A stretch of DNA of 64,000 bases, from assembly GCA_031400935.1 (NCBI GenBank), contig JANNQV010000025.1, forward strand, positions 1 through 64,000. The letters run 5' to 3'. A program made the position numbers and the translations under genes. Of this stretch, positions 9,280-48,221 are shown piece after piece; positions within the stretch are counted from its first letter, which is position 1; each line of letters opens with the position of its first letter. The notes beneath the pieces were generated by a model. It saw only the letters and a program-made list of their open reading frames with translations. It had not been told where the DNA came from and searched no databases. The DNA is from Armatimonadota bacterium. Its GTDB lineage: Bacteria > Armatimonadota > Fimbriimonadia > Fimbriimonadales > Fimbriimonadaceae.

Positions 9280-9465
9280 AGCGTTGCTCTCCCTAAGATT
9301 ATGACGCCAACGATCAGCGATTCGGCATAGTACCGCACCGTGAAATTACTGGAAATTCGAGTAAAGGCGTACAGTTTGTTGGTCGCTGATTTGTCGAATT
9401 TTGGTTGGAACGTGAGCCGCCGTTTGAACCGATCTTAGCTTTCAACATGGTATTCTGCCAGCTTC

Positions 9466-10359: not shown

Positions 10360-10364
10360 TGTGA

Positions 10365-10467
10365 CTTGCCCGTCCCGGGCAAGTGTGGCTCGACCGTCTC
10401 GGTTGAAGCCGCGCTACTCTGTTCCATGGGCGGAACGCCCATGCCAAGCTCGTCCGAAACTGACGAG
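10365..10467. repeat. Cluster of three GC hairpins with 3 to 7 nt loops between convergent genes
   Basis: CTTGCCCG-TCC-CGGGCAAG (10365..10383), CATGGGCG-GAA-CGCCCATG (10425..10443), GCTCGTC-CGAAACT-GACGAGC (10447..10467). They are the same GGGCG-NNN-CGCCC class as the hairpins inside dtd. Confidence 0.45.
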
Positions 10468-10477
10468 CCACGCAGCT

Positions 10478-11599: not shown

Positions 11600-11697
11600 T
11601 CTTCTATTCTACGAAAGTAATGATGTCTTCTGCACCAATTTACCGAGAATTCTTCCATTTCAGGTACGATTTCGTTGTCCCCATCAAACTTTTCATT

Positions 11698-13649: not shown

Positions 13650-14364
13650 TTTAGGGAATACAAAGGCAGCTTTTGGGGTTTGGTCAGGAACTCGATGGAC
13701 TGATATCCGCCAATGGCCGTCACAATCGCTTAGTTCTAGCCCTGAACTTTTCGAATGGCTCAGTCAATTTAGGTTGGGAAATGGCGGAATCAAAGTCGTT
13801 TGCGCTAGTGTGAATCCGTCGGCAGAAGCAAGCCTTACCCGTGCAATTGAACGGACGTTGTACGCAGAGATTCATTTTCTGCGGACTGCACAGGATTTCA
13901 AGTTGAAGACGCTGTACTCTCCTGAGTTAGGCGCAGATCGAATGGCGAACATGGTTGGAGCATTGGACCAATTCAAGCCCCCTCTAATAGTAATTGACGT
14001 CGGAACTGCAACCACAATTGACGCGATAGATAAGACTGGAAGTCACATTGGCGGTGTGATCTTTGCCGGCCCTCAGTTTTCCATTGATGCGTTGCTTGCC
14101 AAATCGCCTTTGATGAAGCCTTCTGAATTACGGAACCACGAAGAACTCTTTAGCTTGAATACGACCGACGCGCTATCGAACGGCCATTTCCTTAGTCACT
14201 GGCACGCGTTATTAGGGATCGAACGTGAAATGAAGTTGGGGATGAAAGGAAGAGTTTCTGTTGTCACAACAGGCGGACTGGGACGAATGTTCAGTGAACT
14301 CGGGGAACTCGGCGAATACCGTCCAACCTTGGCGCTTGAAGGAATTCGGATCGTAAGTACATAG
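13633..14364 (+). CDS. coaX: Type III pantothenate kinase
   Basis: MLLAIDLGNTKAAFGVW N-terminus and a 243-aa acetate/sugar kinase fold typical of CoaX. It overlaps the glmM 3' end by 17 bp. Confidence 0.8.
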   Translation: MLLAIDLGNTKAAFGVWSGTRWTDIRQWPSQSLSSSPELFEWLSQFRLGNGGIKVVCASVNPSAEASLTRAIERTLYAEIHFLRTAQDFKLKTLYSPELGADRMANMVGALDQFKPPLIVIDVGTATTIDAIDKTGSHIGGVIFAGPQFSIDALLAKSPLMKPSELRNHEELFSLNTTDALSNGHFLSHWHALLGIEREMKLGMKGRVSVVTTGGLGRMFSELGELGEYRPTLALEGIRIVST

Positions 14365-19392: not shown

Positions 19393-21672
19393 ATGGGCGT
19401 TGGATCAAGCTTAAGCGGCGTAACATTTAGCGGAATTGGTAGCGGAATTGACACAGAGTCAATCATTTCGCGTTTGATGGCGCTTGAACAGATTCCAATA
19501 AATCGCCTTCAGGTTCAAAGACAGCAACTAGAGGGAAGAAAAGCTGCGTTGGCAGCCTTTCGAGAACGAGTCGCAGCTGTTTCTTCAGCCGGAGCAGCAC
19601 TCAACTCTTCATCAGCATTCAATCCAGTTTCAGCTGCATCGTCAAATGCTGCGACCGCAACGGTTAGTGCAAGTTCGGGAGCAGTTTCAGGAACCTACAA
19701 CCTAGCCGTCTCAAAACTCGCTCAATCGCACAAAATTGCAAGTTCAGCTCAAGCCGATTTGACTACAGCACTAAATGTCTCGGGTCGAGTGATGCTGAAT
19801 GGTCGAATGGTTTCAATAGAAGTCACCGATACATTGACATCCGTTGCCCAAAAAATTAACAGCTCTCAGTCTGGAGTTACTGCAAGTATCATTAACGGCG
19901 GGGCGGGACAAGCATATCTAACGCTGTCGTCGGCTACTTCGGGTGCAAACGGGAAGATTCAAATTTCCGACCTCTCAGGATCAGTCGCATCATCTTTGGG
20001 ATTCACAACTGGTGCAGCCTCCATTCGTGAAGCCGTAACTAATGGCGCAGCGAGCAGCACATTCTCTGCTTCAACAACTGCAATTGGGACTCTGTTGGGT
20101 GTCACTGATTTGACTTCAACTACGGTCAACATAAACGGTACCGATATCTCTTTGAATCTGCAAACGCAATCCCTTCAAGACATTGCAAATACGATTTCGG
20201 CCTCAGCTGCCGGAGTGACAGCTAGTGTCAAAGCGGTAACAGCAAACGGAACAACCCGGCATAGAATCGAAATTGTCGGGAATTCTGGCACACCGACATT
20301 TGTTGATCCCAATGGAACACTTGAGTCATTAGGATTTCTCCAAAAGGGGTTCGGCAGCCAGCTTCTTGCTGCTCAAAACGCTGCATTTACAATTGACGGC
20401 ATGACCTTTTCAAATGCGTCAAACACGGTCACGACCGTAATTCCTGGTGTCACCTTAACTCTTCTCAAAGCGAATGAAACGACTCCAGAAACGTCAACGA
20501 TCAACTTGAGTCAAGACAATACGGCTGTAAAGACGAAAATCAAAGACTTCATGATCACTTATAACAATTTGGTTGACTTTGTTAAAGCAAATTCTGCGTT
20601 TGATAAGGAGAATTTTGATTCTGGCCTTCTTTTTGGAGATGCAACCGTTCAATCTGTAGAGTCGGCATTGTCTCAGACGATGTTCAATACTGTCCAAGGC
20701 TTGGCAACTTCCTATTCAAATATGGGTCAACTTGGCTTCACATTTGATACGGATAGCAAGCTAAAACTTGATGAATCAATTCTTGACACGGTTTTGAACT
20801 CAAATCCGGAAGCTGTAGGCAATGTGTTTCGTACTACAGGAGCCGGTTCAACCGAGTCGCTTCAATTTGTTTCGAGTACAACAAAGACAAAGATAACGGG
20901 CAGCGGAAGTTACTCAGTCAATATCTCGCAGTTAGCTACCAAAGGCTATCATAGGGCTGCAATAGCTCAAACAAGTGTAAACGCAGCTGTCGAAACTCTA
21001 ACTTTCAATGGTGCGTCCCTAGGCAATACGGCTTATTCGTTGACAGTTCCTGCGGGGAACTCCCTTCAGGCAACAATTGACCTAATCAACAACGATTCGA
21101 AGCTAAAAGACATCCTGATAGCAACCAACGACGGTGGATCGCTAAAAGTTGAAGCAAGAAAATTCGGGACTAACGGCAACTTCACCGTTTGGTCCAACCT
21201 TGATGCTGCCGCTGATAATTCAGGAATTGGAAAAGTGGACGGAGTAATTGGAGCGCCAGTTCATTACACTGGTCTGGATACCGCAGGAACAATCAACGGA
21301 GAAACTGCGACGGGCAGCGGCCAATTCCTAACCGGCAGCGTAGGGAACGCGAACACCGAGGGTCTTCAAATTCTTTACACAGGCACCACAACTGGCAACG
21401 TTGGAACTGTCAAGTTTTCGCGAGGTGTTGCCGCCAGTATTCAAGACTTGGTGACTCAATTTACAGACGGTGTTTCAGGCCTGCTAACAGCGAACGACAA
21501 CTCGTTGCAAGCGCAAATCAAGAATATTGATGACACAATCGGGTCTATTCAAGCTCGGACTGTGCTAAAGAACCAAGAGCTTCGTAGGCGATTCTCAGTA
21601 ATGGAGCAATCCATCGCACGATTTCAGCAACAAGCTGGGCAGCTAAACGCGATTTCTTCAGGACTAAGATAG
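19393..21672 (+). CDS. fliD: Flagellar filament cap protein FliD (hook-associated protein 2)
   Basis: FliD N-terminal motif (GIGSGIDTESIISRLMALEQIPINRLQ) and C-terminal coiled coil (LKNQELRRRFSVMEQSIARFQQQAGQLNA). 759 aa. Confidence 0.8.
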   Translation: MGVGSSLSGVTFSGIGSGIDTESIISRLMALEQIPINRLQVQRQQLEGRKAALAAFRERVAAVSSAGAALNSSSAFNPVSAASSNAATATVSASSGAVSGTYNLAVSKLAQSHKIASSAQADLTTALNVSGRVMLNGRMVSIEVTDTLTSVAQKINSSQSGVTASIINGGAGQAYLTLSSATSGANGKIQISDLSGSVASSLGFTTGAASIREAVTNGAASSTFSASTTAIGTLLGVTDLTSTTVNINGTDISLNLQTQSLQDIANTISASAAGVTASVKAVTANGTTRHRIEIVGNSGTPTFVDPNGTLESLGFLQKGFGSQLLAAQNAAFTIDGMTFSNASNTVTTVIPGVTLTLLKANETTPETSTINLSQDNTAVKTKIKDFMITYNNLVDFVKANSAFDKENFDSGLLFGDATVQSVESALSQTMFNTVQGLATSYSNMGQLGFTFDTDSKLKLDESILDTVLNSNPEAVGNVFRTTGAGSTESLQFVSSTTKTKITGSGSYSVNISQLATKGYHRAAIAQTSVNAAVETLTFNGASLGNTAYSLTVPAGNSLQATIDLINNDSKLKDILIATNDGGSLKVEARKFGTNGNFTVWSNLDAAADNSGIGKVDGVIGAPVHYTGLDTAGTINGETATGSGQFLTGSVGNANTEGLQILYTGTTTGNVGTVKFSRGVAASIQDLVTQFTDGVSGLLTANDNSLQAQIKNIDDTIGSIQARTVLKNQELRRRFSVMEQSIARFQQQAGQLNAISSGLR

Positions 21673-23216: not shown

Positions 23217-23292
23217 GCGCTCGTAGCTCAGTGGATAGAGCAACAGGTTGCGGACCTGTAGGTCGGAGGTTCGAGTCCTCTCGAGCGCGCCA
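23217..23292 (+). tRNA. tRNA-Arg (anticodon read as GCG)
   Basis: 76-nt cloverleaf folded by hand. Acceptor GCGCTCG/CGAGCGC, D-arm GCTC/GAGC with A20, anticodon stem ACAGG/CCTGT, loop TTGCGGA, T-arm GGAGG TTCGAGT CCTCT, discriminator G, encoded CCA. Confidence 0.85.
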
Positions 23293-27608: not shown

Positions 27609-28364
27609 ATGGTCGCCCTCTTCGCTGTCGCGATTTGCCAGTATGCTTTTTTTCCTTCTGCTCCACTGATCTATTCGGTTGTGATTGAGATGAATGGCAC
27701 ATTGCCCATTTTAGGAGGTAAAGAAGGGAAAGCGACAATTGAGTTCGATATGCGAGTTATCGGTCTTTTGCAGGATGCTGAAAAGCGGTCACAGGCAGAA
27801 TATGAGTTGCTCTCCTTTCGCACGAAAATGAATGGCGCACTACTTCCATTTGGGCTCGCAAGCGTAAAAGACTTCTTTCCGAAATCTATGTTTTCTTATA
27901 GTTCGACTGGTGAAGTGCTTCATACGACGGCTCCCAAGAAGAGCCTTCCAGCTTCAATGCCAGGGCTAGATTCGCAAAAATTACCGGAAACGACTTTCAT
28001 GCCAATAGTGTTTGGGAAAGGCTCTTCGTGGAACTTTGATAGAACTTTCAATGGAACCAAAATCCGATATTCGGCAACCTCAAAGCCCACAACCGAAGCA
28101 ATGGAAGAATGTGTATTTTCAGCATCACAAGCCGTGAAGTCTTGGGAGGATGAGTCAAACCGTCCAATAGCATCAAGGGAAGGTGCTGCTTTTGAAGTGG
28201 GTTCGCAATTGACCGCAAAGGGATTGCTGAGTTTTGATAAAGTTCAGCAATGCTTGATCCGATCGGAAACAACTGTTGAGATTGAAGGCGATGCGAGGCA
28301 CATTGAATCGAAGCAGTTGTTTCATCGGAAGCTGATGCTCAGAATTGTTTGCACCTTGAAATAG
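27609..28364 (+). CDS. Hypothetical protein with an N-terminal hydrophobic segment
   Basis: 251-aa ORF with coding-like composition and no recognisable motifs. Divergent from the kinase gene. Confidence 0.4.
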   Translation: MVALFAVAICQYAFFPSAPLIYSVVIEMNGTLPILGGKEGKATIEFDMRVIGLLQDAEKRSQAEYELLSFRTKMNGALLPFGLASVKDFFPKSMFSYSSTGEVLHTTAPKKSLPASMPGLDSQKLPETTFMPIVFGKGSSWNFDRTFNGTKIRYSATSKPTTEAMEECVFSASQAVKSWEDESNRPIASREGAAFEVGSQLTAKGLLSFDKVQQCLIRSETTVEIEGDARHIESKQLFHRKLMLRIVCTLK

Positions 28365-34039: not shown

Positions 34040-35590
34040 GTGGAGGATGAATTGAAAGTACAAAGCTTAACAATTATTGCTGCTATTGCAGCTGTGACAA
34101 TGGTCTGTGGCAATGCCACGGCTCAAAAGTTTGGCAAACGCAATGTCTTTGGATATTCTGGTTCGACTAGAACCGTGGCAGATTCAAATATTCAACGAGC
34201 ACGTCCGTTGCGATGGGCGCCGATTGACAAGTTTGGCAATCAGATTGGTCCATGGGTTTCCATGGTTCTAGATAACGATTGGCCCAATGGCCCATGGACA
34301 ACGATTTTTGATGCGATTGAGCTAAGTCCAGCAACCCTTGTCCCAGCTGCCCCAAACGGTGCACCGTACGAGAATCCAGGCTACGGACCTGCTTACATGG
34401 TTACGGGGAATTATGGCTTGACGTCTAACACTCCAGGTGCCAGATTTCGAGCTCCAGCCACATTTGAAATGACATTTTGGACCAACGACATGGAAATCAA
34501 TCCGCTTTATGCAGGGTTTGACGCAAATCGTTGCTCTTTCATGTGGTACTGGAACCCTGTTGGAGGTGCAGGTACAGAGGCTTGCATCATAAATATTAAC
34601 AACGCAGAAACGTTTGCTAATACAGCCGTAGGGCTTCCGCCACCTTCTGGACCCAACAACATTTCATGGGGCGGCGCTTTTGACGGCGTTGCGCTCGATT
34701 TTGGAATGACACTTCCAATTGGTGGCTTCTATGCAAATATTGACCTAGACGCAGGACCGACGCCATTAAGTATGGAGCTTCCAGGCGATGGCAAGGGTGC
34801 ATACATCGTAACGGTGAGAAGCGCAGCTACAACGCTGGCTTCTCGTGCACAACCGTACTTCTGGATCACGAAGCAAACAAATTATGGGTTGCCGGGTGGC
34901 AATCCGAGCAAACAAGGCCCATTCGAATGGGATGACGATACCGACATCGCAAGCACGTTGCCATTTCCAGCTGGGTACATAAACAACTCAGACGGGCGAC
35001 ACATGACTGATCCTCCGGGACCAGCGCATTTGGTAGAGTTCTACGATTACACAGGAGCAATCGGCCCTCCGATCATTGAACCTTTGGGACCTGCTTACGG
35101 CCTCTATTCAAATTTCGGGGCTTTTACAGCTACTTCAGAATCTGAACTGACGGTAGATGCTGGACTTCTCTTTGGCGGATCAGCTTCTTCTCTTCGAATA
35201 GCCGGCGATAGTGACATCTTGTACGTCCTCTGTGATGAATTTGATGCGATCGGCACTATTAGGCTAACAAAAGATACTTCAGTAACCACAACGACTGCGA
35301 TTTCGGTGATCGGCTCAACAAAATCAAGCCGAAACGATATTACTGAATTCTGGCAATTTAGAAACTACGCCACAAGCTCGTGGCAAACTGTTGGATTTCG
35401 AAATAGCCCATTAGGATCGTTTGTATCAAACCGAATTGACGCGACCGCAGGCGCAGCGAGTTTCCTGGATGGTAGCGGGGTTCTTCAATTCCGATACCTA
35501 TGGGTTCCTCAAGCAGATGTCAGCAATATTGATGGCTGGACAATGGAAGTGGATAGGTTGACTGTTTTTGTAAAAGGAACGGACGACTAG
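34040..35590 (+). CDS. Secreted hypothetical protein, paralog of the 8227..9279 product (shared C-terminal module)
   Basis: GTG start with a signal peptide. The C-terminal roughly 140 aa aligns to the 8227..9279 product. A structured leader (nested inverted repeats) sits at 33940..34040. Confidence 0.6.
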   Translation: MEDELKVQSLTIIAAIAAVTMVCGNATAQKFGKRNVFGYSGSTRTVADSNIQRARPLRWAPIDKFGNQIGPWVSMVLDNDWPNGPWTTIFDAIELSPATLVPAAPNGAPYENPGYGPAYMVTGNYGLTSNTPGARFRAPATFEMTFWTNDMEINPLYAGFDANRCSFMWYWNPVGGAGTEACIININNAETFANTAVGLPPPSGPNNISWGGAFDGVALDFGMTLPIGGFYANIDLDAGPTPLSMELPGDGKGAYIVTVRSAATTLASRAQPYFWITKQTNYGLPGGNPSKQGPFEWDDDTDIASTLPFPAGYINNSDGRHMTDPPGPAHLVEFYDYTGAIGPPIIEPLGPAYGLYSNFGAFTATSESELTVDAGLLFGGSASSLRIAGDSDILYVLCDEFDAIGTIRLTKDTSVTTTTAISVIGSTKSSRNDITEFWQFRNYATSSWQTVGFRNSPLGSFVSNRIDATAGAASFLDGSGVLQFRYLWVPQADVSNIDGWTMEVDRLTVFVKGTDD

Positions 35591-35648: not shown

Positions 35649-35768
35649 GAAAAAAATAAAAAAAATAAAAAAATCCTTTCCTTTTCGAGAAAAGTACTAT
35701 ACAATGTGGAAGCGCTCTCCATTAAGAGCGCCGCATTCGTGGAAACGCGAGTGTTAGGAGGAATCATA

Positions 35769-36557
35769 ATGTTACGTAAAATCAATCGGGCGTTCACACT
35801 AATTGAACTATTGGTTGTAATCGCAATTATCGCAATTCTTGCAGCGATTCTATTCCCTGTGTTTGCGCAGGCAAAAGGCAGTGCAAAAACTACCTCGACT
35901 CTCTCCAACATGAAGCAGCAAATCACTGCACTCATCATGTATATGGACGACTATGATAACGTTCTGCGCGGACGATACAATGCTCCGCCAAGTACGGGCC
36001 CATTGGTACCGTATACATCTGAGAACATGATTTGGACGGGATATATTTATCCCTATATGAAGAACAAGGAAGCGTTTTTGGATGTGCGTTCGAAGGAACT
36101 GACAAAATATGCTGATGCTTGGCCAGATCGTGGTTGGCCATCCATCGGACAGAACTCTACGACTGGTGGTTGGTATTGGACAGCAAATCCAAACCAGATG
36201 GTGCTTGAGAGTGCAGATAAATTCAAAAACGTAGCGAAAGTCGTCATGTTGTTCACGAGCTTCTCAGGCGACACTTTGATTGGGCGCCGTGGATATTTAG
36301 CTAAAAACAATGCTGTAAATCTACCGACACCTGGACAAGTTTCAATGAACGACGTTCATAATGAAGGAACAGTCCTGGGCTTCCTTGATGGTCATGCCAA
36401 GAGGTACAAAACGGTAGCTTTGCTAGGCAATCCACTCGGTGACCCGACTTGTGACAACGCTCTGATACCATCAGTTACTGGTGAGTGGTGGCTAGATCGA
36501 AACGCAGCGAAGCTCAAAATGAATCTTTGGGACAACTGCATCATGGATCCTAACTAA
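35769..36557 (+). CDS. DUF1559 family protein with a prepilin-type N-terminal cleavage/methylation domain
   Basis: FTLIELLVVIAIIAILAAILFPVFAQAK pilin-like N-terminus. C-terminal DGHAKRYK motif typical of DUF1559. Confidence 0.75.
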   Translation: MLRKINRAFTLIELLVVIAIIAILAAILFPVFAQAKGSAKTTSTLSNMKQQITALIMYMDDYDNVLRGRYNAPPSTGPLVPYTSENMIWTGYIYPYMKNKEAFLDVRSKELTKYADAWPDRGWPSIGQNSTTGGWYWTANPNQMVLESADKFKNVAKVVMLFTSFSGDTLIGRRGYLAKNNAVNLPTPGQVSMNDVHNEGTVLGFLDGHAKRYKTVALLGNPLGDPTCDNALIPSVTGEWWLDRNAAKLKMNLWDNCIMDPN

Positions 36558-37212: not shown

Positions 37213-37989
37213 TCAAAACCGGTGTTTAAGTAGCGTCCAAAACGCTTCTGGGGCGTCGGTCCACCGAATCTTCTTCCCTGCCTCTTTTGAGCGCGGATGG
37301 TATTGAATGGGCAATTCCATGATCTTATGCCCGCCTCGAATTGCCTTTGCGGTAACTTCCGGGCAAAACTCGAACCTCATGCAAGTTAGATTCATCCCTT
37401 GAATCACATCGGTTCGAAACGCCTTGTAGCAAGTGGCTTCGTCCTTTACCCTTCGAAAATAAAGAATCGCAACCGCCCACGAAAGCAGGACGTTGACTAC
37501 TTTGTTGGGCAATGCCATGCCAGCAGGGAAGCCGGAGGAAAACCGATTTCCATAAACGACCGTTGCTTCGCCCTTGAGTATCGGCGCGACAATCACTGGA
37601 ATCTGCTCCGGCGCATATTCCAGATCGGCGTCTTGTACGATGGTTGCTTTGCCATTGCAAAAGGGAAGCGCCTTTCGAATCGCCTCGCCTTTTCCCGTTT
37701 TGCTCTCACATTCAACTAGAACGATGCGCTCACCATAGGTTCGAAGTATCTCGCCGGTTCGATCTGTTGAACCCGCATTGACGACTACGACTTGAGTGGA
37801 AATTGGCAATGCAAGGAGGCGATCAACGACTTCGCCGATCGTTGCCTCTTCGTTATATGCGGGCACGACAATGGAAACATCATGAGACCCTCGATCCTTG
37901 CTCCGCTGTGAGGATCGAGGGATCGGTTGCTGGCTCAAGCGAGCACCATAGCTTCTTTGCCCCGGAAATACTCGCCAAGCCGAAGGCAC
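37213..37989 (-). CDS. Family 2 glycosyltransferase (dolichyl-phosphate mannose synthase-like)
   Basis: VSIVVPAYNEE...DAD GT2-A motifs. The annotated start overlaps the carB-C 3' end by 55 bp, so the true start is uncertain. Confidence 0.7.
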   Translation of the reverse strand: MPSAWRVFPGQRSYGARLSQQPIPRSSQRSKDRGSHDVSIVVPAYNEEATIGEVVDRLLALPISTQVVVVNAGSTDRTGEILRTYGERIVLVECESKTGKGEAIRKALPFCNGKATIVQDADLEYAPEQIPVIVAPILKGEATVVYGNRFSSGFPAGMALPNKVVNVLLSWAVAILYFRRVKDEATCYKAFRTDVIQGMNLTCMRFEFCPEVTAKAIRGGHKIMELPIQYHPRSKEAGKKIRWTDAPEAFWTLLKHRF

Positions 37990-39596
37990 GATGATTTGGA
38001 GGGATCGGCAAATATCTCAAGCGCATCTGCCAAAGCTTCAGCGGTGTCAATGCTTGTTATGCAGGCAACACCGATTTCTATGCAAGCCCTTCGGATTTGA
38101 GCTGCTTCGCGTTCGGCTTGCTTGTGAGTGCTAGGCGAATTGATGAGAATGCTGATTTCGCCTTGCATGATTCTGTCAAGAAGATTCGGCGAGCCTTCGC
38201 TGATTTTCATCACCCAAAGGTTTTCGATTCCAGCTTGTATTAGGGCGTCATGCGTTCCGCCAGTGGCGGCAATTTTGTATCCTTGATTGGCGAATGTTCG
38301 TGCAATCTGGACAGCTTTTTCCTTATCGTCATCTTTCACGGAAATGAGAACGTATCCATCGCCTTTGAACTGAATTCCGCTCGCGATCATGGCCTTGTAC
38401 AAAGCGGCGTTGAAGTGGTGGTCAATCCCCATGATCTCGCCTGTTGATTTCATTTCTGGGCCGAGGCTGGGTTCGACTTTTCGGAGTTTTTGGAAGCTGA
38501 ACACGGGTGCCTTGACTGCGAAGAGTACGGGTTCTGGAAGGACAGCTTTTCGTTCAATGAAATCGCTTTCTGGAACAACATAGCCCTTTGCCGATTCACT
38601 GCTAGAGGGTTCCAAGCACCAAAGTCCGCTTTGATAACTAAGGTCTGTAAGCTCTTCTCCCATCATGCAACGAGTTCCGAGGTCTACCATTGGGATTCCG
38701 GTGACTTTGCTGAGAAAGGGCACGGTCCGACTCGCACGCGGATTGACTTCAAGGACGTAGGCAATCTCGTTTTGAATGACAAATTGGATATTCATTAAGC
38801 CTTTGATCTTCAATGCTCGTGCAATTTTGCAAGCACTTTCAATCATTTGGGATTGAACTTCCAAAGTAAGTCCGACGGCTGGATATACTGCCATCGAATC
38901 GCCGCTATGAACTCCCGCGCGCTCAATGTGCTCCATGATTCCAGGAACTAAGGTTGATTCTCCATCGGAAATCACGTCAACTTCAGCTTCAACCCCTAAG
39001 AGGTATTGGTCAACGAGCACCGGTTGCCCTTCGCTTGCGGATTCAGCTTCTCCATAGAATTCGCGCAATTGCGCTTCGTCGTATACAATTTCCATTGCTC
39101 TTCCGCCCAAAACAAAACTTGGGCGAACGAGAACTGGATAGCCAACGCTGTTAGCGATCTCGACTGCTTGACTTAGGGATCGAACGGCTTTTCCTTTCGG
39201 GCGCGGTACGTTCAATTCTTCGAGCAAAGCGTCGAACTGCTCCCGATCTTCTGCCATAGCTATGGATTTGGGTGAAGTGCCGAGAACTCGAACTCCAGCA
39301 TCTTGGAGCGGCTGAGCTAGGTTAATTGCGGTTTGTCCGCCAAACTGGCAAACGACGCCGATGGGCTTCTCATGATTTACAACCTGAAGAACATCTGGCA
39401 GGGTAACAGGTTCAAAATAAAGCCCGTCAGAGGTGTCGAAGTCTGTTGAAACGGTCTCGGGATTATTGTTAATGACGATCGCGCGATAGCCGATCTTTTC
39501 GAGAGCCCAAACGCAATGGACGCAAGAGTAGTCGAATTCAATACCTTGACCGATTCGAATCGGCCCGGAGCCAAGAACAAGAATCGTATCGGGCAT
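37935..39596 (-). CDS. carB: Carbamoyl-phosphate synthase large subunit, C-terminal half (second ATP-grasp plus MGS-like domain)
   Basis: MPDTILVLGSGPIRIGQGIEFDYS matches the start of the second CarB repeat. C-terminal MGS-like domain (GYKIAATGGTHDAL). Complements the separately encoded N-half at 40483..42030. Confidence 0.8.
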   Translation of the reverse strand: MPDTILVLGSGPIRIGQGIEFDYSCVHCVWALEKIGYRAIVINNNPETVSTDFDTSDGLYFEPVTLPDVLQVVNHEKPIGVVCQFGGQTAINLAQPLQDAGVRVLGTSPKSIAMAEDREQFDALLEELNVPRPKGKAVRSLSQAVEIANSVGYPVLVRPSFVLGGRAMEIVYDEAQLREFYGEAESASEGQPVLVDQYLLGVEAEVDVISDGESTLVPGIMEHIERAGVHSGDSMAVYPAVGLTLEVQSQMIESACKIARALKIKGLMNIQFVIQNEIAYVLEVNPRASRTVPFLSKVTGIPMVDLGTRCMMGEELTDLSYQSGLWCLEPSSSESAKGYVVPESDFIERKAVLPEPVLFAVKAPVFSFQKLRKVEPSLGPEMKSTGEIMGIDHHFNAALYKAMIASGIQFKGDGYVLISVKDDDKEKAVQIARTFANQGYKIAATGGTHDALIQAGIENLWVMKISEGSPNLLDRIMQGEISILINSPSTHKQAEREAAQIRRACIEIGVACITSIDTAEALADALEIFADPSKSSCLRLGEYFRGKEAMVLA

Positions 39597-39749
39597 GCAA
39601 GTCCAATTGTGACTCATGCCTTGCTCGCGACGCTTGGATGGCTTGTATGGATTGTATAGATTCTATGGAGGATGCGGAATGCAGAATGCAGATTTGAAGA
39701 GCTACAAAGTTATGAAGCAAGTACTTAGGCAATTCAATCAAATAGCTGT

Positions 39750-40496
39750 CTAATGAAGCTTGACCAACGGGAAGACTTCGACATCAACGCCCTGACAAAA
39801 GATCACGTGCTCAATCTTTCGGTCTGGTAGCCCAATGGATTGGGCCAAGTCTGTTTCGAACCGCTCTAAGGATACGTTGGCTAGTTGGTATGGCTTGTGA
39901 TGAACTTGGCCCAGCATCATTGTTCCGTTTGAAAGTGTATAGAGTTGATATCTTTCAACGAGCCAAAATTCAAATGTTCCAGGTGCAGCCGAATGGAAAT
40001 CGGTCTCGTGGTCATATTTGAGAGTCATCGAAGCATGAGGTTCGTCGAGCCTTCTAATTCTGTAATCAATCGTTTGGCCGCTCAAATGAACTGCCATATC
40101 TGAATGCAAATAATTTAGCCCGAAGAAGTTTTTGGCATACTCACAAGCCAGCCATCTTGAAGCATCGAGTGAAAAGAACCAAACTCCTGGATCCATGCCG
40201 TTTCGATGTACATAGGTTCTAACATTTGTTTCCGGAAATGCGGATAGCCACGGAATTGCTGGCAACCCAGGATATCGAATGCTGTTCATCGTGAAGGCAA
40301 CTATGCCAATCCAAGCTTGCTCGACTCCATTTGCGTCTGGAAATGTGTCAATTTCAAGCTCAAGTGGAACGTGATTTCTCAGCATATCGGGCGAGACAGG
40401 ATAGTGGAGAAAGCATAAGTCTCGCCAAGATTGCAGCATCACTGGCTTCCCAATTGGCCGTGAACGCATTTGCAGATACTTGCTAATCGGCAGCAT
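39750..40496 (-). CDS. DUF2071 (YqjF-like, acetoacetate-decarboxylase-fold) protein
   Basis: 248 aa with length and motifs ([17 protein letters not shown]) consistent with DUF2071. It lies between the two carB halves and overlaps the carB-N 3' end by 14 bp. Confidence 0.6.
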
Positions 40497-42030
40497 CGTT
40501 TTCTTCGCCTACCGTTGCATAGAAGTAGGGGGTGTGTGACTCAAATTCTGCGGCGCATGTGTCAACCATTTTGTAAACTTGATTGGGCTGATGTTCAATG
40601 AGGGTATTGTGTTCATCATCAATTAGGTTCTGAAGTTTAGATAGGAACCACTTGTCAACTTTGCAAAGTTTGTTTACTTCGTCAATGCTCCAACCTCTCC
40701 GAAGGCCTTCTGCGATTGCCCATAGTCGTTCGTCTGTAGGGATTCTGATGGCACTTCTAAGTGCTTCATCCCGCATGGCCTCGAATTTCTCGTGTCTGAG
40801 GTCCTTCTGCTTCACTTCCAAGCCTCGAATAGCCTTCATCAGCGCAGATTCAAAATTCCTGTCAATCGCCATGACCTCACCAGTTGCCTTCATTTGAGTG
40901 AAGAGAGTGCGATCGCCACCAGAGAATTTGTCAAACGGCCAACGGGGGATTTTCACTACACAGTAGTCAAGCGCAGGTTCAAAACACGCCTTTGTTGTTC
41001 GAGTGACCTCGTTTTCAATCTGGTCTAAGGTCTTACCAACGGCAATTTTTGCGGCTACTCGAGCGATTGGGTAGCCGGTCGCCTTAGAAGCGAGGGCTGA
41101 GGATCTTGAAACTCGCGGATTGACTTCGATAATGTAATAGTCAAAGCTGTCTGGATTCAGGGCCATCTGGACGTTGCAGCCACCTTCAATGCCGAGAGAA
41201 TTGATGATTTTCAATGCGGCGGTTCGCATCATGTGGTATTCAAGATCGCTCAATGTTTGGCTTGGCGCAACAACAATCGAATCTCCTGTGTGAACGCCCA
41301 TGGGGTCGAAATTTTCCATGTTGCAAACGGTTATGCAGTTTCCAGCCGAATCGCGCATCACTTCATATTCAATTTCTTTCCAGCCCAAAAGGCTGCGTTC
41401 CACCATGATTTGGCTCTTCATTGAAAGCTTCAAGCCCTTGCAGCCGATTTCCCAAAGCTCTTCGGGAGAGTAGGCAACACCGCCACCCGTTCCTCCCAAA
41501 GTGTAGGCTGGACGAACGATTCGTGGGTATGCAAACTGGATGGGTCGTCCGCTCTCGCTAGGGACTTCAACAGGCAGAATGGCTCGAAGCTGATCTTCGG
41601 TTTCGACGATAAAGCTCTCAGGAACAGGCTCCTTAATTTCGCGCATGAGAGTTCGAAATTCCTCCCTGTCTTCTGCTTTTCGAATTGCCGAAAGAGGTGT
41701 GCCAAGAACACGTACATTGTTTCTCTCAAGAATTCCAGCATCGGATAGCTGGATCGCCAAATTGAGGCCAGTTTGTCCGCCTAAGGTGGGTAAGAGGGCG
41801 TCTGGCTTCTCCCGAATTATCACCCTTTCACAAAAATCAACGGTCAACGGTTCGATGTAAAGAGCATCCGATACTTCCGGATCGGTCATGATCGTTGCTG
41901 GATTTGAATTGATCAGGACGACTTGATGGCCTTCTTCTCGAAGGCTTTTGCAGGCTTGAGTTCCTGCGTAGTCAAATTCGGCGGCTTGTCCGATTACGAT
42001 GGGTCCCGAACCGATAACAAGCACCTTCAT
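40483..42030 (-). CDS. carB: Carbamoyl-phosphate synthase large subunit, N-terminal half (first ATP-grasp plus oligomerisation domain)
   Basis: [52 protein letters not shown] is the canonical CarB N-terminus. 515 aa. It ends after the oligomerisation domain at its own stop codon. Confidence 0.85.
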
Positions 42031-42167: not shown

Positions 42168-43262
42168 CTACCGTCGCCGCGGGATCATTCTTCTTCCAAA
42201 CATCATTCCACCCTGTTGGAAACTGTCAACACCATCAATCGGCGTCCAAAAAACAGATTGTCGCAAACCTGAGCTTAGGAACAATGCGAGGCGGCCACCG
42301 CCATCAAAATTCACTCGATACACGCCGTAATCATCAATTGAGCCGCTCAAAACCGTAAATGCAACCTGGACTCCAGTATGACTTGGCGATGGGCCGTACT
42401 CATCGCGAGTGTCAGTTGTTAGTCTAGTAGCTGTCGAGCTAGCAATGGCTGGTACGGAATAGATATCGAAGTTTCCATTTCGGTCAGTAGCAAAATAAAT
42501 GGTCGAGCCATCTTTGCTCCATTGCGGATTGATGTCGTCAGCTCCGTTGAGCGTCAAATTTACGAACCCTGTGCCATCCAAGTTCAACAGCCCGATATCT
42601 GCCTTGCCGCCAACAATTCTGGAGATTGCAAGCTTGTCACCTGTTGCGTTTACAAACGCTTCTTCAGCATCGCCGATTCTTAGCAAACCGCTTCCGTTCG
42701 TATTGATCGTGTAGACCCCAAAATCGCCTTCAGTTGCCGAAGCCGTGAAAACAATCTGGCTCCCATTTGGAAGGTATTGAACAGTCCCAACGTAAAGGAA
42801 ATTACTGGTAGTGAGTCGAGACGAACCAGAAATGGTAGGATTTGCGCCCCGGAAAAGGTCATAACGAGGATTTGACAAGCTCGAAGTGTAAAAGAAAGCG
42901 TATTGAGTGACGGGCAAATTTGGAGTCGCAACAGGAATGTTTTGGGTCAAATTGGCGAATGGGGTAACTGATGTTCCATCGGAATTCATGAATTTGACGG
43001 CTGTCCCAGAGCCATTTACGTCGCTAAAGAAGACCTTGTCGTCAGGAAGTGCCGATCCACCACCAGAAGTTGTGGAAGTCGTAGAGGTAGTGGATGTGGT
43101 CGAAGTTGTGGAAGTTGTAGAAGTTGTAGAAGTGGTTGAGTTGGTAGAGGTAGTTCCGGTTGTGCCTCCTCCCCCGCCGCCACATCCAATAAGGATGGCA
43201 AAAAGCAACGCAACGATAAAAGCAATAATTGGGCTGTACGATCGGAACCTGGCGATTTCCAT
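42168..43262 (-). CDS. Lipoprotein with a (TTS)n linker and TolB-like PD40 beta-propeller repeats
   Basis: Lipobox LIGCGGG. TTSTNSTTSTTSTTSTTSTTSTTSTTSTTS linker encoded by a 9-bp tandem repeat (43072..43165). PD40 motifs (DGSTIYFATDRNGNFDIYSV). The track ORF opens at 43316 with a TTG start; the ATG at 43262 is preferred. Confidence 0.6.
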   Translation of the reverse strand: MEIARFRSYSPIIAFIVALLFAILIGCGGGGGGTTGTTSTNSTTSTTSTTSTTSTTSTTSTTSTTSGGGSALPDDKVFFSDVNGSGTAVKFMNSDGTSVTPFANLTQNIPVATPNLPVTQYAFFYTSSLSNPRYDLFRGANPTISGSSRLTTSNFLYVGTVQYLPNGSQIVFTASATEGDFGVYTINTNGSGLLRIGDAEEAFVNATGDKLAISRIVGGKADIGLLNLDGTGFVNLTLNGADDINPQWSKDGSTIYFATDRNGNFDIYSVPAIASSTATRLTTDTRDEYGPSPSHTGVQVAFTVLSGSIDDYGVYRVNFDGGGRLALFLSSGLRQSVFWTPIDGVDSFQQGGMMFGRRMIPRRR

Positions 43263-43342
43263 TGGATGATATTTAGACACATTCAGGGTGTGGAAGTGTT
43301 CGGCAAACAACGTCAATCTTTGAATATTCGTAGACTAACCTA

Positions 43343-43393: not shown

Positions 43394-45943
43394 CTAGTTG
43401 CAGATTATTTTCTTTACAACGAAATTGTCAATCGCAGCTTCAGTAACCCCATCGTTCGGGTTGTCCGTTGCCATGAACCTTACAACCATGTTGTTCGAAG
43501 TTGAAACAAAAGCACCGACTCGAAAGCTCTTTCGAATCCACGAGTTGTTTCCTGTTCCTGTGACCGTTTCAATGGTCGTCCAAGATGCTCCACCGTTGTT
43601 GGATATTTGAACTGTGAATACGTCAGGAACTCCATTTACTGAGTAGAACCACCGGCTGTATTCGATTATGCCTTCGCTTCCGCTAAGGTCGAATACGGGT
43701 GACTTTAGTTCAGTTGGACCTCCATCAACATCCGCCGCTCCAACTGCCCCGCCAACGACTCCTTGGCCTGTGAAGAAGCAGTTTGCACCAGTATCTGTGG
43801 AATCGTTTTCCGGTTGCGCAGGAACGGATCCGTTAACGGTTCCGATAGGATCGCCTCTTATCCAAGCCCCGGCCGAAAGTGCGGTGTTGGTTACTGTCCA
43901 AGGATTTGCAGCTTCAAACGTATCTGTGAATATGGTCGTGGTGGACAATCCAAGGATATAGCTCATGGGTGCCGATGCACCGCCAGCTGGAAAGAACACG
44001 GTATGCCCCTGATCATCTTGAACAGAGATATAGTAATCCACTTGAGAACCGCAGTTAGATTGATCTATTCCGCCCCACATAAAGCCAGGGTCGTTGTATT
44101 CAAGCATAGTTGTCTGATCCCATGCACTGCCATTTATTCGAAAGTTGATTCGAATGGATGGGATTATTGGATTCGATACGTTGGATCGAACTTGAAACCT
44201 CATGGGATGGTAAATATCAACGTTTGGTTGATAGACGACAAACCCCGATGGCATCGAAATTGGAACGAAAGTCAGCCATTGCAAAGCAGGAGCGGTTAAG
44301 CCTTTGAATCCGAATCCAAATGCGATGTCATCGTAATGGGGGGTTCCGTTACCTAGGTTCGCGTCATTGTCATCAAGAGTGAGGACATCAACCGTTAAAC
44401 CAGGTGTGATTCCAGGAGGATGCAATAGAATTGAATTGACTGCGTAATTTCGCATCAATCCCAATCCAATAGCATGTCCTATTGTTGTGTCCATTTTCCG
44501 AACGGTCTCCCAGAACGCGCCGCTAACAATCATGCCAGCGGTGTGAACTTCAGAACCTGCGTTCTCTGGATAGTGAATGGTGTTAATAGCATTTCGTAGC
44601 GGGCCAGTTCCAAATCCTTGAAAGTCAACACCTAAGAGAGGAGTGTCGCCAAGCAAGGAAGCAATTACATCGCCCATGCCCTCTCCATAGCCGCCCTGTC
44701 CAGTTCCAGCACGGTTAATGATGAAATGGCCGTATTCGTGGTAAATAACCGTTGAATAAGCAGTGTTCGGGCAAGAACCACCAGCATTGAAGAAGTTGAT
44801 CGTCATGTTTCCGCTGTTGAAGTTTGCGTTGCAAGTGGAAGCCTGATTTACGTTGGTAGTCAGCGAAATGTCAATACCTGGAAAAGCTGGGCTCATGGCT
44901 TTCGTGAAGTCATGAACTACGTGTGTTTGAAGATAAGCATTCACCTGAGCGACATCGAATTGAGCCAATCCGGCAGCATAGACGATATTGTTCGGTCCTG
45001 GAGGCGTTACGCTTGTACTTGAAGTTAAAGGAACTCCTTGCGCAGGCACAACTGTCGAATATCGGCCTACTAATCCTGAAGTCACTGTTACCGGAATTGC
45101 CCCTCCGTTTGCGATCGTGTAGTTTCCATTTACATCAGTGTAAGCAAAATTGCCGCCAGTGATACTGACTCTTAGGTGCGGCAAATTTGCCAATACTTCT
45201 GGATAACCGGGCCAATCTGGCATCAAGCCTGGGGAAGTCCAACCTTTTACTGAGCCTGACACGTCAACCTCGAGGACTTCGTTGCGGCGCTTTAGGATTT
45301 GTCCGGAAACAGCATCAACCCAAATCGTAGATGCTAGGTCGGTACTGTAAGCATTTCCGGTTGCCATGAATTTCCAAGCCAAGTGCTGGGCTGTTTCTCC
45401 GAGCCAAACTACAAGAATCGGCGCTGTAAAGGTAGTGTAAAGCGGATCGTTTTGCCGGAAATTCAAAACTGCTTTTGAAGCTGAGATTCTAACTTTTGGC
45501 AATGAACTGGTTACACTTCGACCATTCGCGCTTGCCAAAACAATTGGGTTTCCAAGTTGATTTCGAACAAGAATTGTCAAAAAACCGTTTTCGACGGGCA
45601 CTCCGCCCGCGACCTCTTGAAAATAGACGGCTGTAAATTTGCCGTTTGAAACATCTTGTGATCCGGTTCCGATGAATTCGCCTTCATTTGGAAGAAATAA
45701 ATCAGAGTATGACTTTACAAAATTTAATGCGGCCTCTTCTGGCGTGTATCCGCCGCCGAAAGGTGCCCCAAAAACCCTTTCGATGTTCGAGCCGCTAAAC
45801 AAAAATTGAACCTCAGGCTGGGTTCCACGCAGTTGCGACATCGCATCTTGTTGTCGCGTTACCGCATCCGATTGAGCTTGGGCAAATGTTGTCGTTGCCA
45901 GTGCAATAACGACAGCATAAAACCCGAATCTATTGATTCGCAT
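43394..45943 (-). CDS. Secreted zinc metalloprotease (thermolysin/fungalysin-like HExxH...GEGxxD) with a C-terminal beta-sandwich module
   Basis: Signal peptide. HEYGHFII followed by GYGEGMGD (Glu-zincin third-ligand motif). The C-terminal roughly 120 aa weakly resemble the shared module of the 8227..9279 and 34040..35590 proteins (NNSWIRKSFRVGAF; IDNFVV). Confidence 0.65.
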   Translation of the reverse strand: MRINRFGFYAVVIALATTTFAQAQSDAVTRQQDAMSQLRGTQPEVQFLFSGSNIERVFGAPFGGGYTPEEAALNFVKSYSDLFLPNEGEFIGTGSQDVSNGKFTAVYFQEVAGGVPVENGFLTILVRNQLGNPIVLASANGRSVTSSLPKVRISASKAVLNFRQNDPLYTTFTAPILVVWLGETAQHLAWKFMATGNAYSTDLASTIWVDAVSGQILKRRNEVLEVDVSGSVKGWTSPGLMPDWPGYPEVLANLPHLRVSITGGNFAYTDVNGNYTIANGGAIPVTVTSGLVGRYSTVVPAQGVPLTSSTSVTPPGPNNIVYAAGLAQFDVAQVNAYLQTHVVHDFTKAMSPAFPGIDISLTTNVNQASTCNANFNSGNMTINFFNAGGSCPNTAYSTVIYHEYGHFIINRAGTGQGGYGEGMGDVIASLLGDTPLLGVDFQGFGTGPLRNAINTIHYPENAGSEVHTAGMIVSGAFWETVRKMDTTIGHAIGLGLMRNYAVNSILLHPPGITPGLTVDVLTLDDNDANLGNGTPHYDDIAFGFGFKGLTAPALQWLTFVPISMPSGFVVYQPNVDIYHPMRFQVRSNVSNPIIPSIRINFRINGSAWDQTTMLEYNDPGFMWGGIDQSNCGSQVDYYISVQDDQGHTVFFPAGGASAPMSYILGLSTTTIFTDTFEAANPWTVTNTALSAGAWIRGDPIGTVNGSVPAQPENDSTDTGANCFFTGQGVVGGAVGAADVDGGPTELKSPVFDLSGSEGIIEYSRWFYSVNGVPDVFTVQISNNGGASWTTIETVTGTGNNSWIRKSFRVGAFVSTSNNMVVRFMATDNPNDGVTEAAIDNFVVKKIICN

Positions 45944-46124
45944 AATTCCTCCTATCTAACCGCCGCCCCGGTGGGCGTCACAGATATAGTCCTATTTTAG
46001 CGGCTAATTAGTTCGGATCGTGTGAGCTTTTTTCAAAATACTAGAATTCTTTGCTGAGAACCTTCAAAACCCGGCAAAATTGCCGACGATACCAATAAGG
46101 CCGCAATGTGCCTTGTTTGAATAT

Positions 46125-48221
46125 ATGAAGCAACTTCAGAATCTTCTCAAGCATACAGATCTGCTCTTTGGAGTGGGACTCGTTGTCGTTGTTGCAATTT
46201 TAATTTTGCCATTGCCCCATTGGGCATTGGACATGGGGCTTGTTGTGGCAATTGCATCGGCTGTCATCATCTTGCTCAGCTCGGTAAACGTGACCGATCC
46301 GCTTCAATTTTCTGTTTTCCCTTCGCTCTTGCTCGTTACGACGCTTTTTCGGCTTGCGTTGAGCATCGCCGCAACGAAACTCATTCTGGGTACTGGCCAA
46401 GCCGGGGCTGTCATCGAAACGTTCGGTAACTTCATCATGGGTGGCGACTTTATCGTCGGCGTTGTGGCGTTTCTGATCCTTGTCATTGTTCAATTTATTG
46501 TAATTACCAATGGTGCTGGACGTGTTTCAGAAGTTGTAGCTCGATTTACCTTAGATGCAATGCCAGGCAAGCAGATGGCGATTGACGCCGACCTTGCCGC
46601 AGGCTCGATTGACGAAGACCAAGCCAAGGAACGTCGAGAAAATGTAAAGCGTGAAGCCGATTTCTATGGTGCGATGGACGGCGCATCCAAATTTGTAAAA
46701 GGCGATGCAATCGCTTCGATTCTAATCATCATTATCAATATCATCGGCGGCTTTGCCGTTGGGTTCATGAAGGGCCAAGGCGACGCCTTGACGATCATGA
46801 AGACTTACACAATTCTAAGCGTCGGCGAAGGACTCGTTTCGCAGCTTCCGGCTTTGCTCATTAGTACCGCGAGCGGTTTGCTTGTCACCCGTTCAGGGCA
46901 ACAAAGAAGCATGGGCGCCGAAGTCATCGGCCAAATGCTAGGCCAGCCTAAAGCACTCACTTATGCTGGCGGAGCGCTCGCAGGAATGTCGCTGGTGCCA
47001 GGATTTCCAACGGTCATCTTTCTCATCGCTGCGGCGGGCTGTTTTGGAATCGGGCAGTTTATGGAGAAAACTCCTGGTGCTCGAAAACTCGTTGGTGCGG
47101 AAACTATGGACGAAAAGAAGGCAGACGCAAAGCTAGTGGAAGCCGCGGCAAAGCAAAGCGTTCCGCAGGGACCGGATTCAGTCTTGCCACTGCTTGCCGT
47201 TGATCCCCTAGAAATCGAAATCGGGCACGGCTTGACCAAACTTGCCGATGCCCGGGTTGGCGGAGATATGTCGGAACGGGTTACCTCAACCCGAAAACAG
47301 ATCGCATTAGAACTCGGGTTCGTAATGCCGACCGTTCGAATTCGCGATTCCATTCATTTGAAGAGTACGGAATACGCGATCAAAGTTCGCGGCGAAGAGG
47401 TTGCAAGGGCTGAAATCATCCCGAATATGCACCTTGCCATCTCTAGCGGGGAAGTGTTTGGCTCGGTTCCAGGAATAACTACAAAAGACCCTGTTTTTGG
47501 ACTCGATGCAATATGGATTGACCCAGCCAACCGAGAAACCGCCGAGCGATCTGGATATTCAGTAATCGAGCCTTCAGCGGTCATTACAACTCATTTAGGA
47601 GAAGTTGCCAAGGCCGCGGCATCCGAATTGCTTACAAGGCAAGACGTTTTCAAGCTCATCGAGAACGCGAAATTGCAAAACGAAAGCGCAGTTACCGAAC
47701 TCATTCCAAATGTTCTCACTGTTGGTGATGTGCAAAAAGTCCTTCAGCACCTTCTTCGAGAGCGAGTTCCGATTCGAGACATGGTCACCATTTTGGAAAC
47801 CATGGCAGACTTTGGCACACGCGTCAAAGACCCAGATCAGCTAGGCGAACTCGTTCGCGCAAACGTCGCCCGAACGATTACGCGCCAATTTGTAGACCCC
47901 ACGAACAAGCTTGCCTGCATCACTCTTGACCCAGCCCTTGAAAGAGATTTGGTTGAAAATGTAAACCTGACGAACTTCGGCTCAATGCTTGTCATCACTC
48001 CAGAGCAACAGCGCGACCTCATGGAATCCATCCGCGCAGAGGTTGACCGCGCCAATGTGCAAGGCTTCCATGCCGTTCTTCTTTGCGGAAACCAGCTTCG
48101 CCTTCCTCTCAAGAGGCTGGTTGAAAAGCAGCTTCCAACCCTGGCAGTCATGGCGTACAACGAAGTGGCAGAAACGGCAGAAGTGGAATTCATAGGGCAG
48201 CTAAAAGCCTTCGCGGCGTAA
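46125..48221 (+). CDS. flhA: Flagellar biosynthesis protein FlhA
   Basis: Canonical FlhA motifs (MPGKQMAIDADLAAGSIDEDQAKERRENVKREADFYGAMDGASKFVKGDAIA). The start is chosen at MKQLQNLL. Confidence 0.9.
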   Translation: MKQLQNLLKHTDLLFGVGLVVVVAILILPLPHWALDMGLVVAIASAVIILLSSVNVTDPLQFSVFPSLLLVTTLFRLALSIAATKLILGTGQAGAVIETFGNFIMGGDFIVGVVAFLILVIVQFIVITNGAGRVSEVVARFTLDAMPGKQMAIDADLAAGSIDEDQAKERRENVKREADFYGAMDGASKFVKGDAIASILIIIINIIGGFAVGFMKGQGDALTIMKTYTILSVGEGLVSQLPALLISTASGLLVTRSGQQRSMGAEVIGQMLGQPKALTYAGGALAGMSLVPGFPTVIFLIAAAGCFGIGQFMEKTPGARKLVGAETMDEKKADAKLVEAAAKQSVPQGPDSVLPLLAVDPLEIEIGHGLTKLADARVGGDMSERVTSTRKQIALELGFVMPTVRIRDSIHLKSTEYAIKVRGEEVARAEIIPNMHLAISSGEVFGSVPGITTKDPVFGLDAIWIDPANRETAERSGYSVIEPSAVITTHLGEVAKAAASELLTRQDVFKLIENAKLQNESAVTELIPNVLTVGDVQKVLQHLLRERVPIRDMVTILETMADFGTRVKDPDQLGELVRANVARTITRQFVDPTNKLACITLDPALERDLVENVNLTNFGSMLVITPEQQRDLMESIRAEVDRANVQGFHAVLLCGNQLRLPLKRLVEKQLPTLAVMAYNEVAETAEVEFIGQLKAFAA

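Follow-up and report, generated by a model that had tools for sequence, protein, structure and literature searches.

Three exported proteins encoded in a 64,000-nucleotide stretch of DNA from an Armatimonadota bacterium (GenBank assembly GCA_031400935.1, contig JANNQV010000025.1, positions 1 to 64,000; hereafter the window) were found to end in copies of one module of about 150 amino acids (aa). Their genes are referred to here as A, B and C, and the module copies by the same letters (Table 1). The protein family defined by the module is large, is restricted to phyla that have received little study, and has no description in any of the libraries searched. As its predicted fold is that of lectins and carbohydrate-binding modules (CBMs), we favour a non-covalent binding function over a cleaved membrane sorting signal, and give an even chance to the reading that this lectin/CBM-like C-terminal module tethers exported proteins non-covalently, by binding, and thus serves in their anchoring or targeting.

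Three window proteins carry the same C-terminal module

BLASTP aligned aa 361-507 of protein A (516 aa) with aa 193-344 of protein B (350 aa) over 154 columns, with 35% identity, 58% positives and E=3e-24, and gave no significant match between the N-terminal parts of the two proteins. An earlier examination of the letters without database searches (hereafter the sequence-only reading) had described an alignment of about 140 aa at 35-40% identity between these C-termini and had considered the N-terminal regions unrelated; both descriptions were confirmed, as were the two ORFs themselves, and the blocks quoted for the alignment are present verbatim. A profile built from A and B only, which was searched against all 401 stop-to-stop open reading frames (ORFs) of the window, recovered the C-terminus of protein C (E=1e-4, profile positions 8-154). 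The three modules could be aligned with one another end to end at pairwise identities of 18-35%, and all of them were recognized by an independent family hidden Markov model (HMM) made from 148 database members and no window sequence, with E-values of 1.5e-52 for module B, 1e-38 for module C and 1.7e-38 for module A.

Judged by these comparisons, the window holds three copies of the module, not four. The remaining candidate, the C-terminus of a metalloprotease, was rejected as a family member, with E=4.2 against the A+B profile, E=1.2 against the family HMM and an hhalign probability of 0.5%. Hence, of the two weaker echoes of the module pointed out by the sequence-only reading, that in the BNR protein encoded by gene C proved to be a genuine third copy, but that in the metalloprotease did not. 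The C-terminal ∼180 aa of the metalloprotease form a different beta-sandwich with weak sub-threshold matches to choice-of-anchor-J (choice_anch_J, 16.2 bits against a cut-off of 30), Reelin subrepeat B and GH114_assoc; the protein is secreted, contains an HEYGH motif and shows a weak match to the FTP propeptide. Hydrophobic, signal-peptide-like N-termini were observed in all four proteins, as had been proposed.

Protein A, in which the module follows an unannotated N-terminal part of ∼340 aa, matched no Pfam or NCBIfam family above cut-off. Its putative signal peptide was read off the sequence, the probable cleavage site being placed by the AxA rule, and the hydrophobicity maximum in the first 45 aa is 2.8. 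The TTG at 34052 is more likely to be the true start of gene A than the listed GTG at 34040, because it is preceded by GGAGGA at 34042-34047 and because the product read from it (MKVQSLTII...) agrees with the N-terminus of the ortholog P0009 (MKVNFF). Module A departs from the family consensus at three conserved positions, with G29, S66 and S100 in place of S, E and D. Protein B likewise had no Pfam or NCBIfam match; no exact copy of it was found on record, and its near-identical cluster representative is P0001. Protein C matched Sortilin-Vps10 of Pfam (5e-20) and, under the cut-off of that model, the F510_1955-family glycosylhydrolase of NCBIfam (8.6e-30). Its module represents a diverged subtype without the WIP and DGW motifs, which has AEP...IAKW in their place. 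A second and larger BNR/sortilin-Vps10-type protein of the window is devoid of the module and has another C-terminal region.

Size, position and composition of the family

An exhaustive HMMER search with the three-sequence profile against 1.84 billion cluster representatives (clusters at 50% identity) yielded 1,778 representatives at E<=1e-3, 473 at E<=1e-10 and 10 at E<=1e-30. A word-indexed homology search with module A found no match, and the same kind of search with a 71-sequence profile found only five, all of them short unnamed metagenome proteins. All members inspected are unnamed or annotated as ‘hypothetical protein’ and originate from metagenome-assembled genomes (MAGs) or metagenomes, and literature searches on the module, on PF14741 and on sorting signals of Armatimonadota returned nothing specific.

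The properties of the family were counted in the best 150 of the 1,778 representatives. The module envelope ended 0-4 residues from the C-terminus in 148 of these and exactly at the C-terminus in 107, and it was internal in P0132 and P0139 only. No second significant copy within one protein was found. Proline is the exact last residue of 61 of the 148 members (41%). The proteins are between 138 and 1,318 aa long, and a strongly hydrophobic segment within the first 45 aa, taken as a crude proxy for a signal peptide and not as a SignalP prediction, was present in 83% of the 133 full-length representatives as well as in all three window members. The DGW motif was found in 120 of the 150 modules and was absent from 30. 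The module is acidic and poor in lysine (D 7.4%, K 1.3%), a composition reminiscent of Ca2+-binding extracellular sandwiches. A transmembrane-like segment is lacking in the last 45 aa, where the 15-aa Kyte-Doolittle maximum had a median of 0.44 and reached 1.6 in only two of the 150, and so is a basic tail, the mean number of K/R in the last 8 aa being 0.72.

The N-terminal passengers of the module are diverse. Any Pfam domain was detected in the N-terminal part of only ∼20 of 106 full-length representatives; most of these domains are beta-propellers and peptidases, and they include SBBP, Lactonase, PQQ_2, PD40, GSDH, DPPIV_N, Pectate_lyase22, Trypsin and Laminin_G_3. Reprolysin-like M12B peptidases were encountered at two loci (L003 and L015), and an HpiC1-cyclase-like N-terminal sandwich is joined to the module in a member of L019 (21134..22150). 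The other known passengers are BNR/sortilin propellers, further beta-propellers, beta-helix repeats and many unannotated folds.

Members were found grouped locally, with three in 22 kb of L020 (members at 6782..13864), two in 24 kb of L019 and three in the 64-kb window, which suggests, as an extrapolation and not as a count, that a genome may encode tens of them. Such an occurrence of several members per genome segment fits a shared targeting module. A scan of genome contigs with a narrowed alignment returned four loci, all from one Armatimonadota MAG, and a metagenome scan returned ten short contigs from one assembly, the patterns in both scans being too narrow for a taxonomic survey. Of the genes beside P0159, one encodes PSD2-5/PSCyt3 domains and another belongs to the HXXSHH family. 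As these families are named for Planctomycetes, the module family probably extends to bacteria of the Planctomycetes-Verrucomicrobia-Chlamydiae (PVC) type.

Comparison with curated domain families

No Pfam-A family reached its cut-off on the module region of the window proteins or on any of 71 isolated modules, and the curated families of the galactose-binding superfamily (F5_F8_type_C, CBM_6, CBM_35 etc.) gave no match among the 71 modules at E<=1. NCBIfam release 20 gave no consistent match, and none of its sorting-domain or choice-of-anchor models matched the modules. Sequence profile searches of the PDB returned nothing significant, with matches at chance level to antibody heavy chains and CHMP1. 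The question raised by the sequence-only reading, whether the module is an already named domain, can thus be answered in that no Pfam or NCBIfam model covers it.

The sub-threshold Pfam matches in the 71 modules were to GH114_assoc (PF14741), plus one to CBM65_1 at 0.063. GH114_assoc was the only curated model to recur, in ten of the 71 modules at E<=1 with a best E-value of 2.4e-5, and the matching region, positions 37-125 of the 126 in the model, leaves the first third of the module uncovered. Module A scored 17.9 bits against this model when isolated and 14 bits within the whole protein, the cut-off being 22. At E<=1e-3 the model matched one of the 106 full-length members, and the GH114 catalytic domain (Glyco_hydro_114) was seen in none of them. 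GH114_assoc would be a distant sister family at best.

The sequence-only reading had regarded a conserved C-terminal module on otherwise unrelated exported proteins as the hallmark of a sorting or anchoring system. A conserved C-terminal domain on unrelated proteins with signal peptides is indeed present, but the features of PEP-CTERM or LPXTG signals are absent. The arrangement of motif, helix and basic cluster that characterizes PEP-CTERM, LPXTG, GlyGly-CTERM and MYXO-CTERM-type signals was not found, nor was any Pfam or NCBIfam match to them, and a PEP-CTERM/LPXTG-type signal was ruled out, the module being a globular domain of 150 aa without a hydrophobic helix or a basic tail. Nor was a match obtained to the models of the C-terminal domain (CTD) of the type IX secretion system (T9SS) or of choice-of-anchor domains, those of the T9SS CTD (Por_Secre_tail, type A/B) having been compared with all 71 modules at E<=1 in both Pfam and NCBIfam.

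Predicted fold and conserved residues

AlphaFold2 (AF2), when supplied with a 71-sequence alignment, predicted a sandwich of about ten strands with a predicted local distance difference test (pLDDT) score of 93.5 and a predicted template modelling (pTM) score of 0.87. This model superseded an earlier and poor one obtained from three sequences (pLDDT 65.6). The top structural neighbours are glycan-binding modules and lectins (CBM32, CBM29, CBM61, CBM16, CBM22, F-lectin, discoidin and MAM), and Foldseek placed the MAM domains of meprin, LAST-MAM and neuropilin at template modelling (TM) scores of 0.46-0.60. According to the model, the module has a galactose-binding-domain-like jelly-roll fold which can be superimposed on solved members and is without a close solved relative. 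A fold of the galactose-binding or MAM type had been anticipated by the sequence-only reading.

In the numbering of module A, the near-invariant positions are G15, G20, D30, D39, D100, P130, D138-G139-W140 and D145, and E40, E66, R71, D73, N82, W88, R125 and D133 are well conserved. The near-invariant residues are mostly Asp, Gly and Trp in predicted loops, and most of the acidic conserved positions likewise fall in predicted loops. Assuming simple strand alternation, the loops with D39/E40, D100 and D133/D138 would be located at that end of the sandwich which faces away from both termini, and it is there that the ligands of CBM32, discoidin and F-lectin domains are bound.

Two alternatives to the binding of a ligand on the producing cell have to be weighed against the fold. 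The module may be an ordinary substrate-targeting CBM, by which secreted hydrolases are directed to environmental polysaccharide and not to the cell's own surface. This close variant of the reading that we favour is consistent with the CBMs of polysaccharide-degrading enzymes among the fold neighbours, with the glycosidase-like propeller of the BNR/sortilin type in one window member, with Pectate_lyase22 in one representative, with the weak link to GH114_assoc and with the polysaccharide-degrading habit of cultivated Armatimonadota (PMC12485897). Since most passengers are not carbohydrate-active enzymes (CAZymes), and tandem copies or variable positions, as in typical CBM usage, are missing, we consider it unlikely. 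The module may, on the other hand, bind nothing and assist in the folding, stability or oligomerization of its carrier, without a ligand or a role in sorting, in the manner of pre-peptidase C-terminal domains and P-domains. Some members are peptidases (the reprolysin-like ones at L003 and L015, and trypsin in one representative), and the same fold has protein-protein roles in IFT25, APC10 and MAM. Helper domains of this kind are, however, normally bound to one catalytic family, whereas the passengers of the module are mutually unrelated, and conservation is centred on acidic and aromatic loop residues and not on the core alone; a purely structural role therefore seems very unlikely.

Genomic context and selection

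The window is collinear with two contigs of the MAG ‘Armatimonadota bacterium SOY_40_concoct_342’, which carry orthologs of A and B and share 79-84% of its nucleotides. It is therefore a chromosomal segment of a related bacterium of that phylum. The gene A ortholog in the Armatimonadota MAG (L004) shows 84% nucleotide identity, and the module B ortholog at MAG locus L001 shows 86% protein identity within a flanking region of 83% DNA identity. The ratio of non-synonymous to synonymous substitutions (dN/dS) between window and MAG was 0.05 for the N-terminal part of A and 0.13 for its module, and 0.10-0.12 for gene B; overall, it amounted to 0.12-0.13 in the modules and 0.05-0.10 in the N-terminal parts. 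The module is therefore under constraint, and each paralog is separately maintained by selection.

These data also bear on the simplest explanation of the shared C-termini, a chance similarity or a recent local duplication without wider meaning. The E-value of 3e-24 between A and B speaks against chance, and the low identity among the three window copies points to an ancient divergence and an old paralogous family instead of a recent duplication of two paralogs, the outcome that the sequence-only reading had named as fatal to its proposal. With 1,778 representatives in public data, and with each paralog kept separately in the related MAG under purifying selection, there is next to no chance that this explanation holds, and on the sequence comparisons we regard it as already refuted.

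The genes surrounding A, B and C are housekeeping or unrelated genes (M3 peptidase, glycogen phosphorylase, phosphoglucomutase, GuaA, split CarB, Ffh, RimM, S16, FliD and FlhA), and the three members have no common neighbour in the window. In the member neighbourhoods of five unrelated contigs no conserved partner gene was detected, and the co-distributed processing enzyme envisaged by the sequence-only reading was not found around members in the contigs inspected.

Gene A is followed on its own strand, after 115 bp, by a prepilin-type gene with N-methylation and H-X9-DG-like features, and a similar gene is located between two members in the unrelated contig L020 (8338..9147). A regular-expression scan of the first 18 loci detected such a gene only in L004, the locus of the gene A ortholog; the L020 case came from the called-gene table. 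The pilin-like proteins of the window and of L020 resemble each other in no more than the DGH motif and a generic pilin helix, and the N-terminal parts of the members that adjoin them are unrelated. H-X9-DG prepilin-like genes are very abundant in these phyla, and the adjacency may therefore be due to chance.

These observations are relevant to a further alternative, namely that the module is a secretion or sorting tag, a folded sandwich whose recognition in the periplasm would fall to a machinery for translocation across, or attachment to, the outer membrane that only Armatimonadota and PVC-type bacteria possess. The tag might then be removed or used for covalent attachment, as a functional analogue of the T9SS CTD of Bacteroidota. 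The extreme C-terminal location in 148 of 150 with its fixed end and frequent terminal proline, the single copy per protein, the many members per genome and their very diverse signal-peptide passengers would all be expected of such a tag; the members are, moreover, scattered without a conserved neighbour, as in other sorted protein sets, and a prepilin-type gene adjoins members in two unrelated contigs. On the other side, no candidate machinery was identified in the window or in the inspected neighbourhoods, no sorting-domain model matched in Pfam or NCBIfam, the domain is internal in two proteins, and the pilin adjacency is open to the explanation by chance given above. In addition, a jelly roll of ∼150 aa is larger than known secretion tags and belongs to another fold class, with binding modules as its fold neighbours. 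Taken together, we hold a secretion or sorting tag to be possible but rather unlikely. In its boldest form, which we consider quite unlikely, the module would be the recognition tag of an undescribed sorting or surface-display pathway of Armatimonadota and Planctomycetota-type bacteria, as the counterpart there of the T9SS CTD. Such a tag may act together with the hugely expanded H-X9-DG prepilin-like proteins, its carriers being substrates of an export akin to the type II secretion system (T2SS) or cargo on pseudopilus-like fibres.

Several other features of the window were recorded. The FlhA gene is convergent with the module-bearing BNR gene and ends 46 bp from it, and with both FliD and FlhA encoded the lineage appears flagellated. 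The large subunit of carbamoyl-phosphate synthase is apparently split into two ORFs, each with a preATP-grasp and an ATP-grasp domain, between which a DUF2071 gene is placed. In a PD40 protein (Tol-Pal-like beta-propeller repeat), a lipobox-like LIGC, a Gly run and a low-complexity (T-T-S)n linker of ∼35 residues hint at a lipoprotein whose stalk is extended or heavily modified. Two ORFs had no Pfam match at E<=1e-3, and tRNA and Rfam scans of the window revealed only a tRNA-Arg.

Table 1. Coordinates of module-bearing genes and other features of the window
Feature	Position	Strand	Remarks
Gene A, exported protein	34040..35590	+	516 aa as listed; probably 512 aa from TTG 34052
Signal peptide of A, predicted Sec	34052..34123	+	MKVQSLTIIAAIAAVTMVCGNATA followed by QK
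Module copy A	35135..35578	+	aa 366-513 of listed ORF; galactose-binding-domain-like beta-jelly roll (predicted)
Gene B, exported protein	8227..9279	-	350 aa; ∼175-aa unannotated N-terminal part, then C-terminal module
Signal peptide of B	9223..9279	-	MKRIFIFFAFVITSLTANA followed by QV
Module copy B	8233..8688	-	aa 198-349
Gene C, BNR/sortilin-Vps10-type beta-propeller	48267..51002	-	911 aa; hydrophobic N-terminus and C-terminal module
Module copy C	48273..48728	-	aa 759-910
Prepilin-type gene	35706..36557	+	AFTLIELLVVIAIIAILAAILFPVF ... H-x9-DGH
Metalloprotease	43394..45943	-	
Second BNR/sortilin-Vps10-type protein	54759..57689	+	976 aa
FliD	19393..21672	+	
FlhA	46080..48221	+	
Carbamoyl-phosphate synthase large subunit, two halves	40483..42030 and 37935..39617	-	
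DUF2071 gene	39750..40496		
PD40 protein	42168..43316	-	
ORF	61507..63768	-	753 aa
ORF	27609..28364	+	251 aa
tRNA-Arg	23217..23292		

Discussion

The evidence on fold, position and passengers can be accommodated in the following scheme. The carrier proteins would be exported by means of their N-terminal Sec signal peptides, with a single module as the very last domain, which after export would fold into an acidic sandwich, probably stabilized by Ca2+. The conserved Asp, Glu, Asn and Trp positions (SDD, DE-D-N, D100 and D-x4-DGW) would then hold one shared ligand, for which the most plausible candidate is a glycan from the envelope or the exopolysaccharide matrix of the producing cell itself, and passenger domains of very different kinds would thereby be held near the cell or on a polysaccharide substrate. 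In its favour are the glycan-binding modules and lectins among the fold neighbours, the conserved Asp, Gly and Trp residues in predicted loops, the acidic composition, the weak but recurrent matches to GH114_assoc, itself joined to a glycoside hydrolase, and the constraint on the module. The analysis establishes the homology, the size of the family, its C-terminal location and fold, the lack of a transmembrane tail and purifying selection, from which Ca2+ binding, a glycan as the ligand and retention at the surface are inferred.

Several points weigh against the binding of such a ligand. The structural likeness is at the level of the fold only, with 5-14% identity and TM scores of ∼0.5, and non-lectin proteins such as IFT25, APC10/DOC and XRCC1 have the same fold. 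Typical CBMs are variably placed, often in tandem and mostly on CAZymes, whereas the module is single and strictly C-terminal, which is unusual for a CBM-like domain, and a clear polysaccharide-degrading domain was found in only one of the 106 full-length representatives (Pectate_lyase22). The tightly fixed C-terminus with its frequent terminal proline is better explained by recognition by a machinery. Furthermore, one common binding site cannot be universal in the family, as the BNR subtype and 30 of the 150 modules are devoid of the DGW loop.

What was known already is the fold and the idea of an accessory beta-sandwich on secreted proteins; what appears to be new is the family itself, with at least 1,778 clusters at 50% identity. 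It offers access to the exported proteins of phyla that have been little studied: in Armatimonadota and related lineages, a search with a module profile would pick out tens of extracellular or surface proteins in each genome, the majority of which have N-terminal domains of unknown fold. Should the module bind a glycan of its own cell, as we favour, it would define a new system by which proteins are displayed at the surface non-covalently; should it be a secretion tag, a so far undescribed route of export through the outer membrane would be implied; and should it be an ordinary CBM, it would be a candidate for a new CBM family. Under all three readings, a curated domain model is worth making.

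Among known systems, the T9SS CTD resembles the module in that it, too, is a folded beta-sandwich with which many mutually unrelated Sec-exported proteins end, the genes for these proteins being scattered. This resemblance is a functional analogy only. The module belongs to another fold class, is about twice the size and occurs in Armatimonadota and Planctomycetota-type contexts instead of Bacteroidota, and no T9SS genes were seen in the 64-kb window. PEP-CTERM, LPXTG and MYXO-CTERM-type signals are likewise C-terminal elements common to many unrelated exported proteins of a genome, but they comprise only ∼25-35 residues, in which a motif is combined with a transmembrane helix and a cluster of basic residues (PMC1569441, PMC11980579). 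With regard to the NCBIfam choice-of-anchor domains, the module gave no match, and the weak choice-of-anchor-J match belongs to the non-member metalloprotease. GH114_assoc is N-terminal and tied to glycoside hydrolase family 114, whereas the module is C-terminal in nearly all members. MAM domains are extracellular accessory sandwiches with a fold like that of the module, which has no match to the Pfam MAM family. Finally, CBM32/F5-8 type C, CBM29, CBM61, CBM16, CBM22 and the F-type lectins share its fold without membership at the sequence level, and, unlike these galactose-binding-domain-like CBMs, the module is mostly joined to passengers other than glycoside hydrolases.

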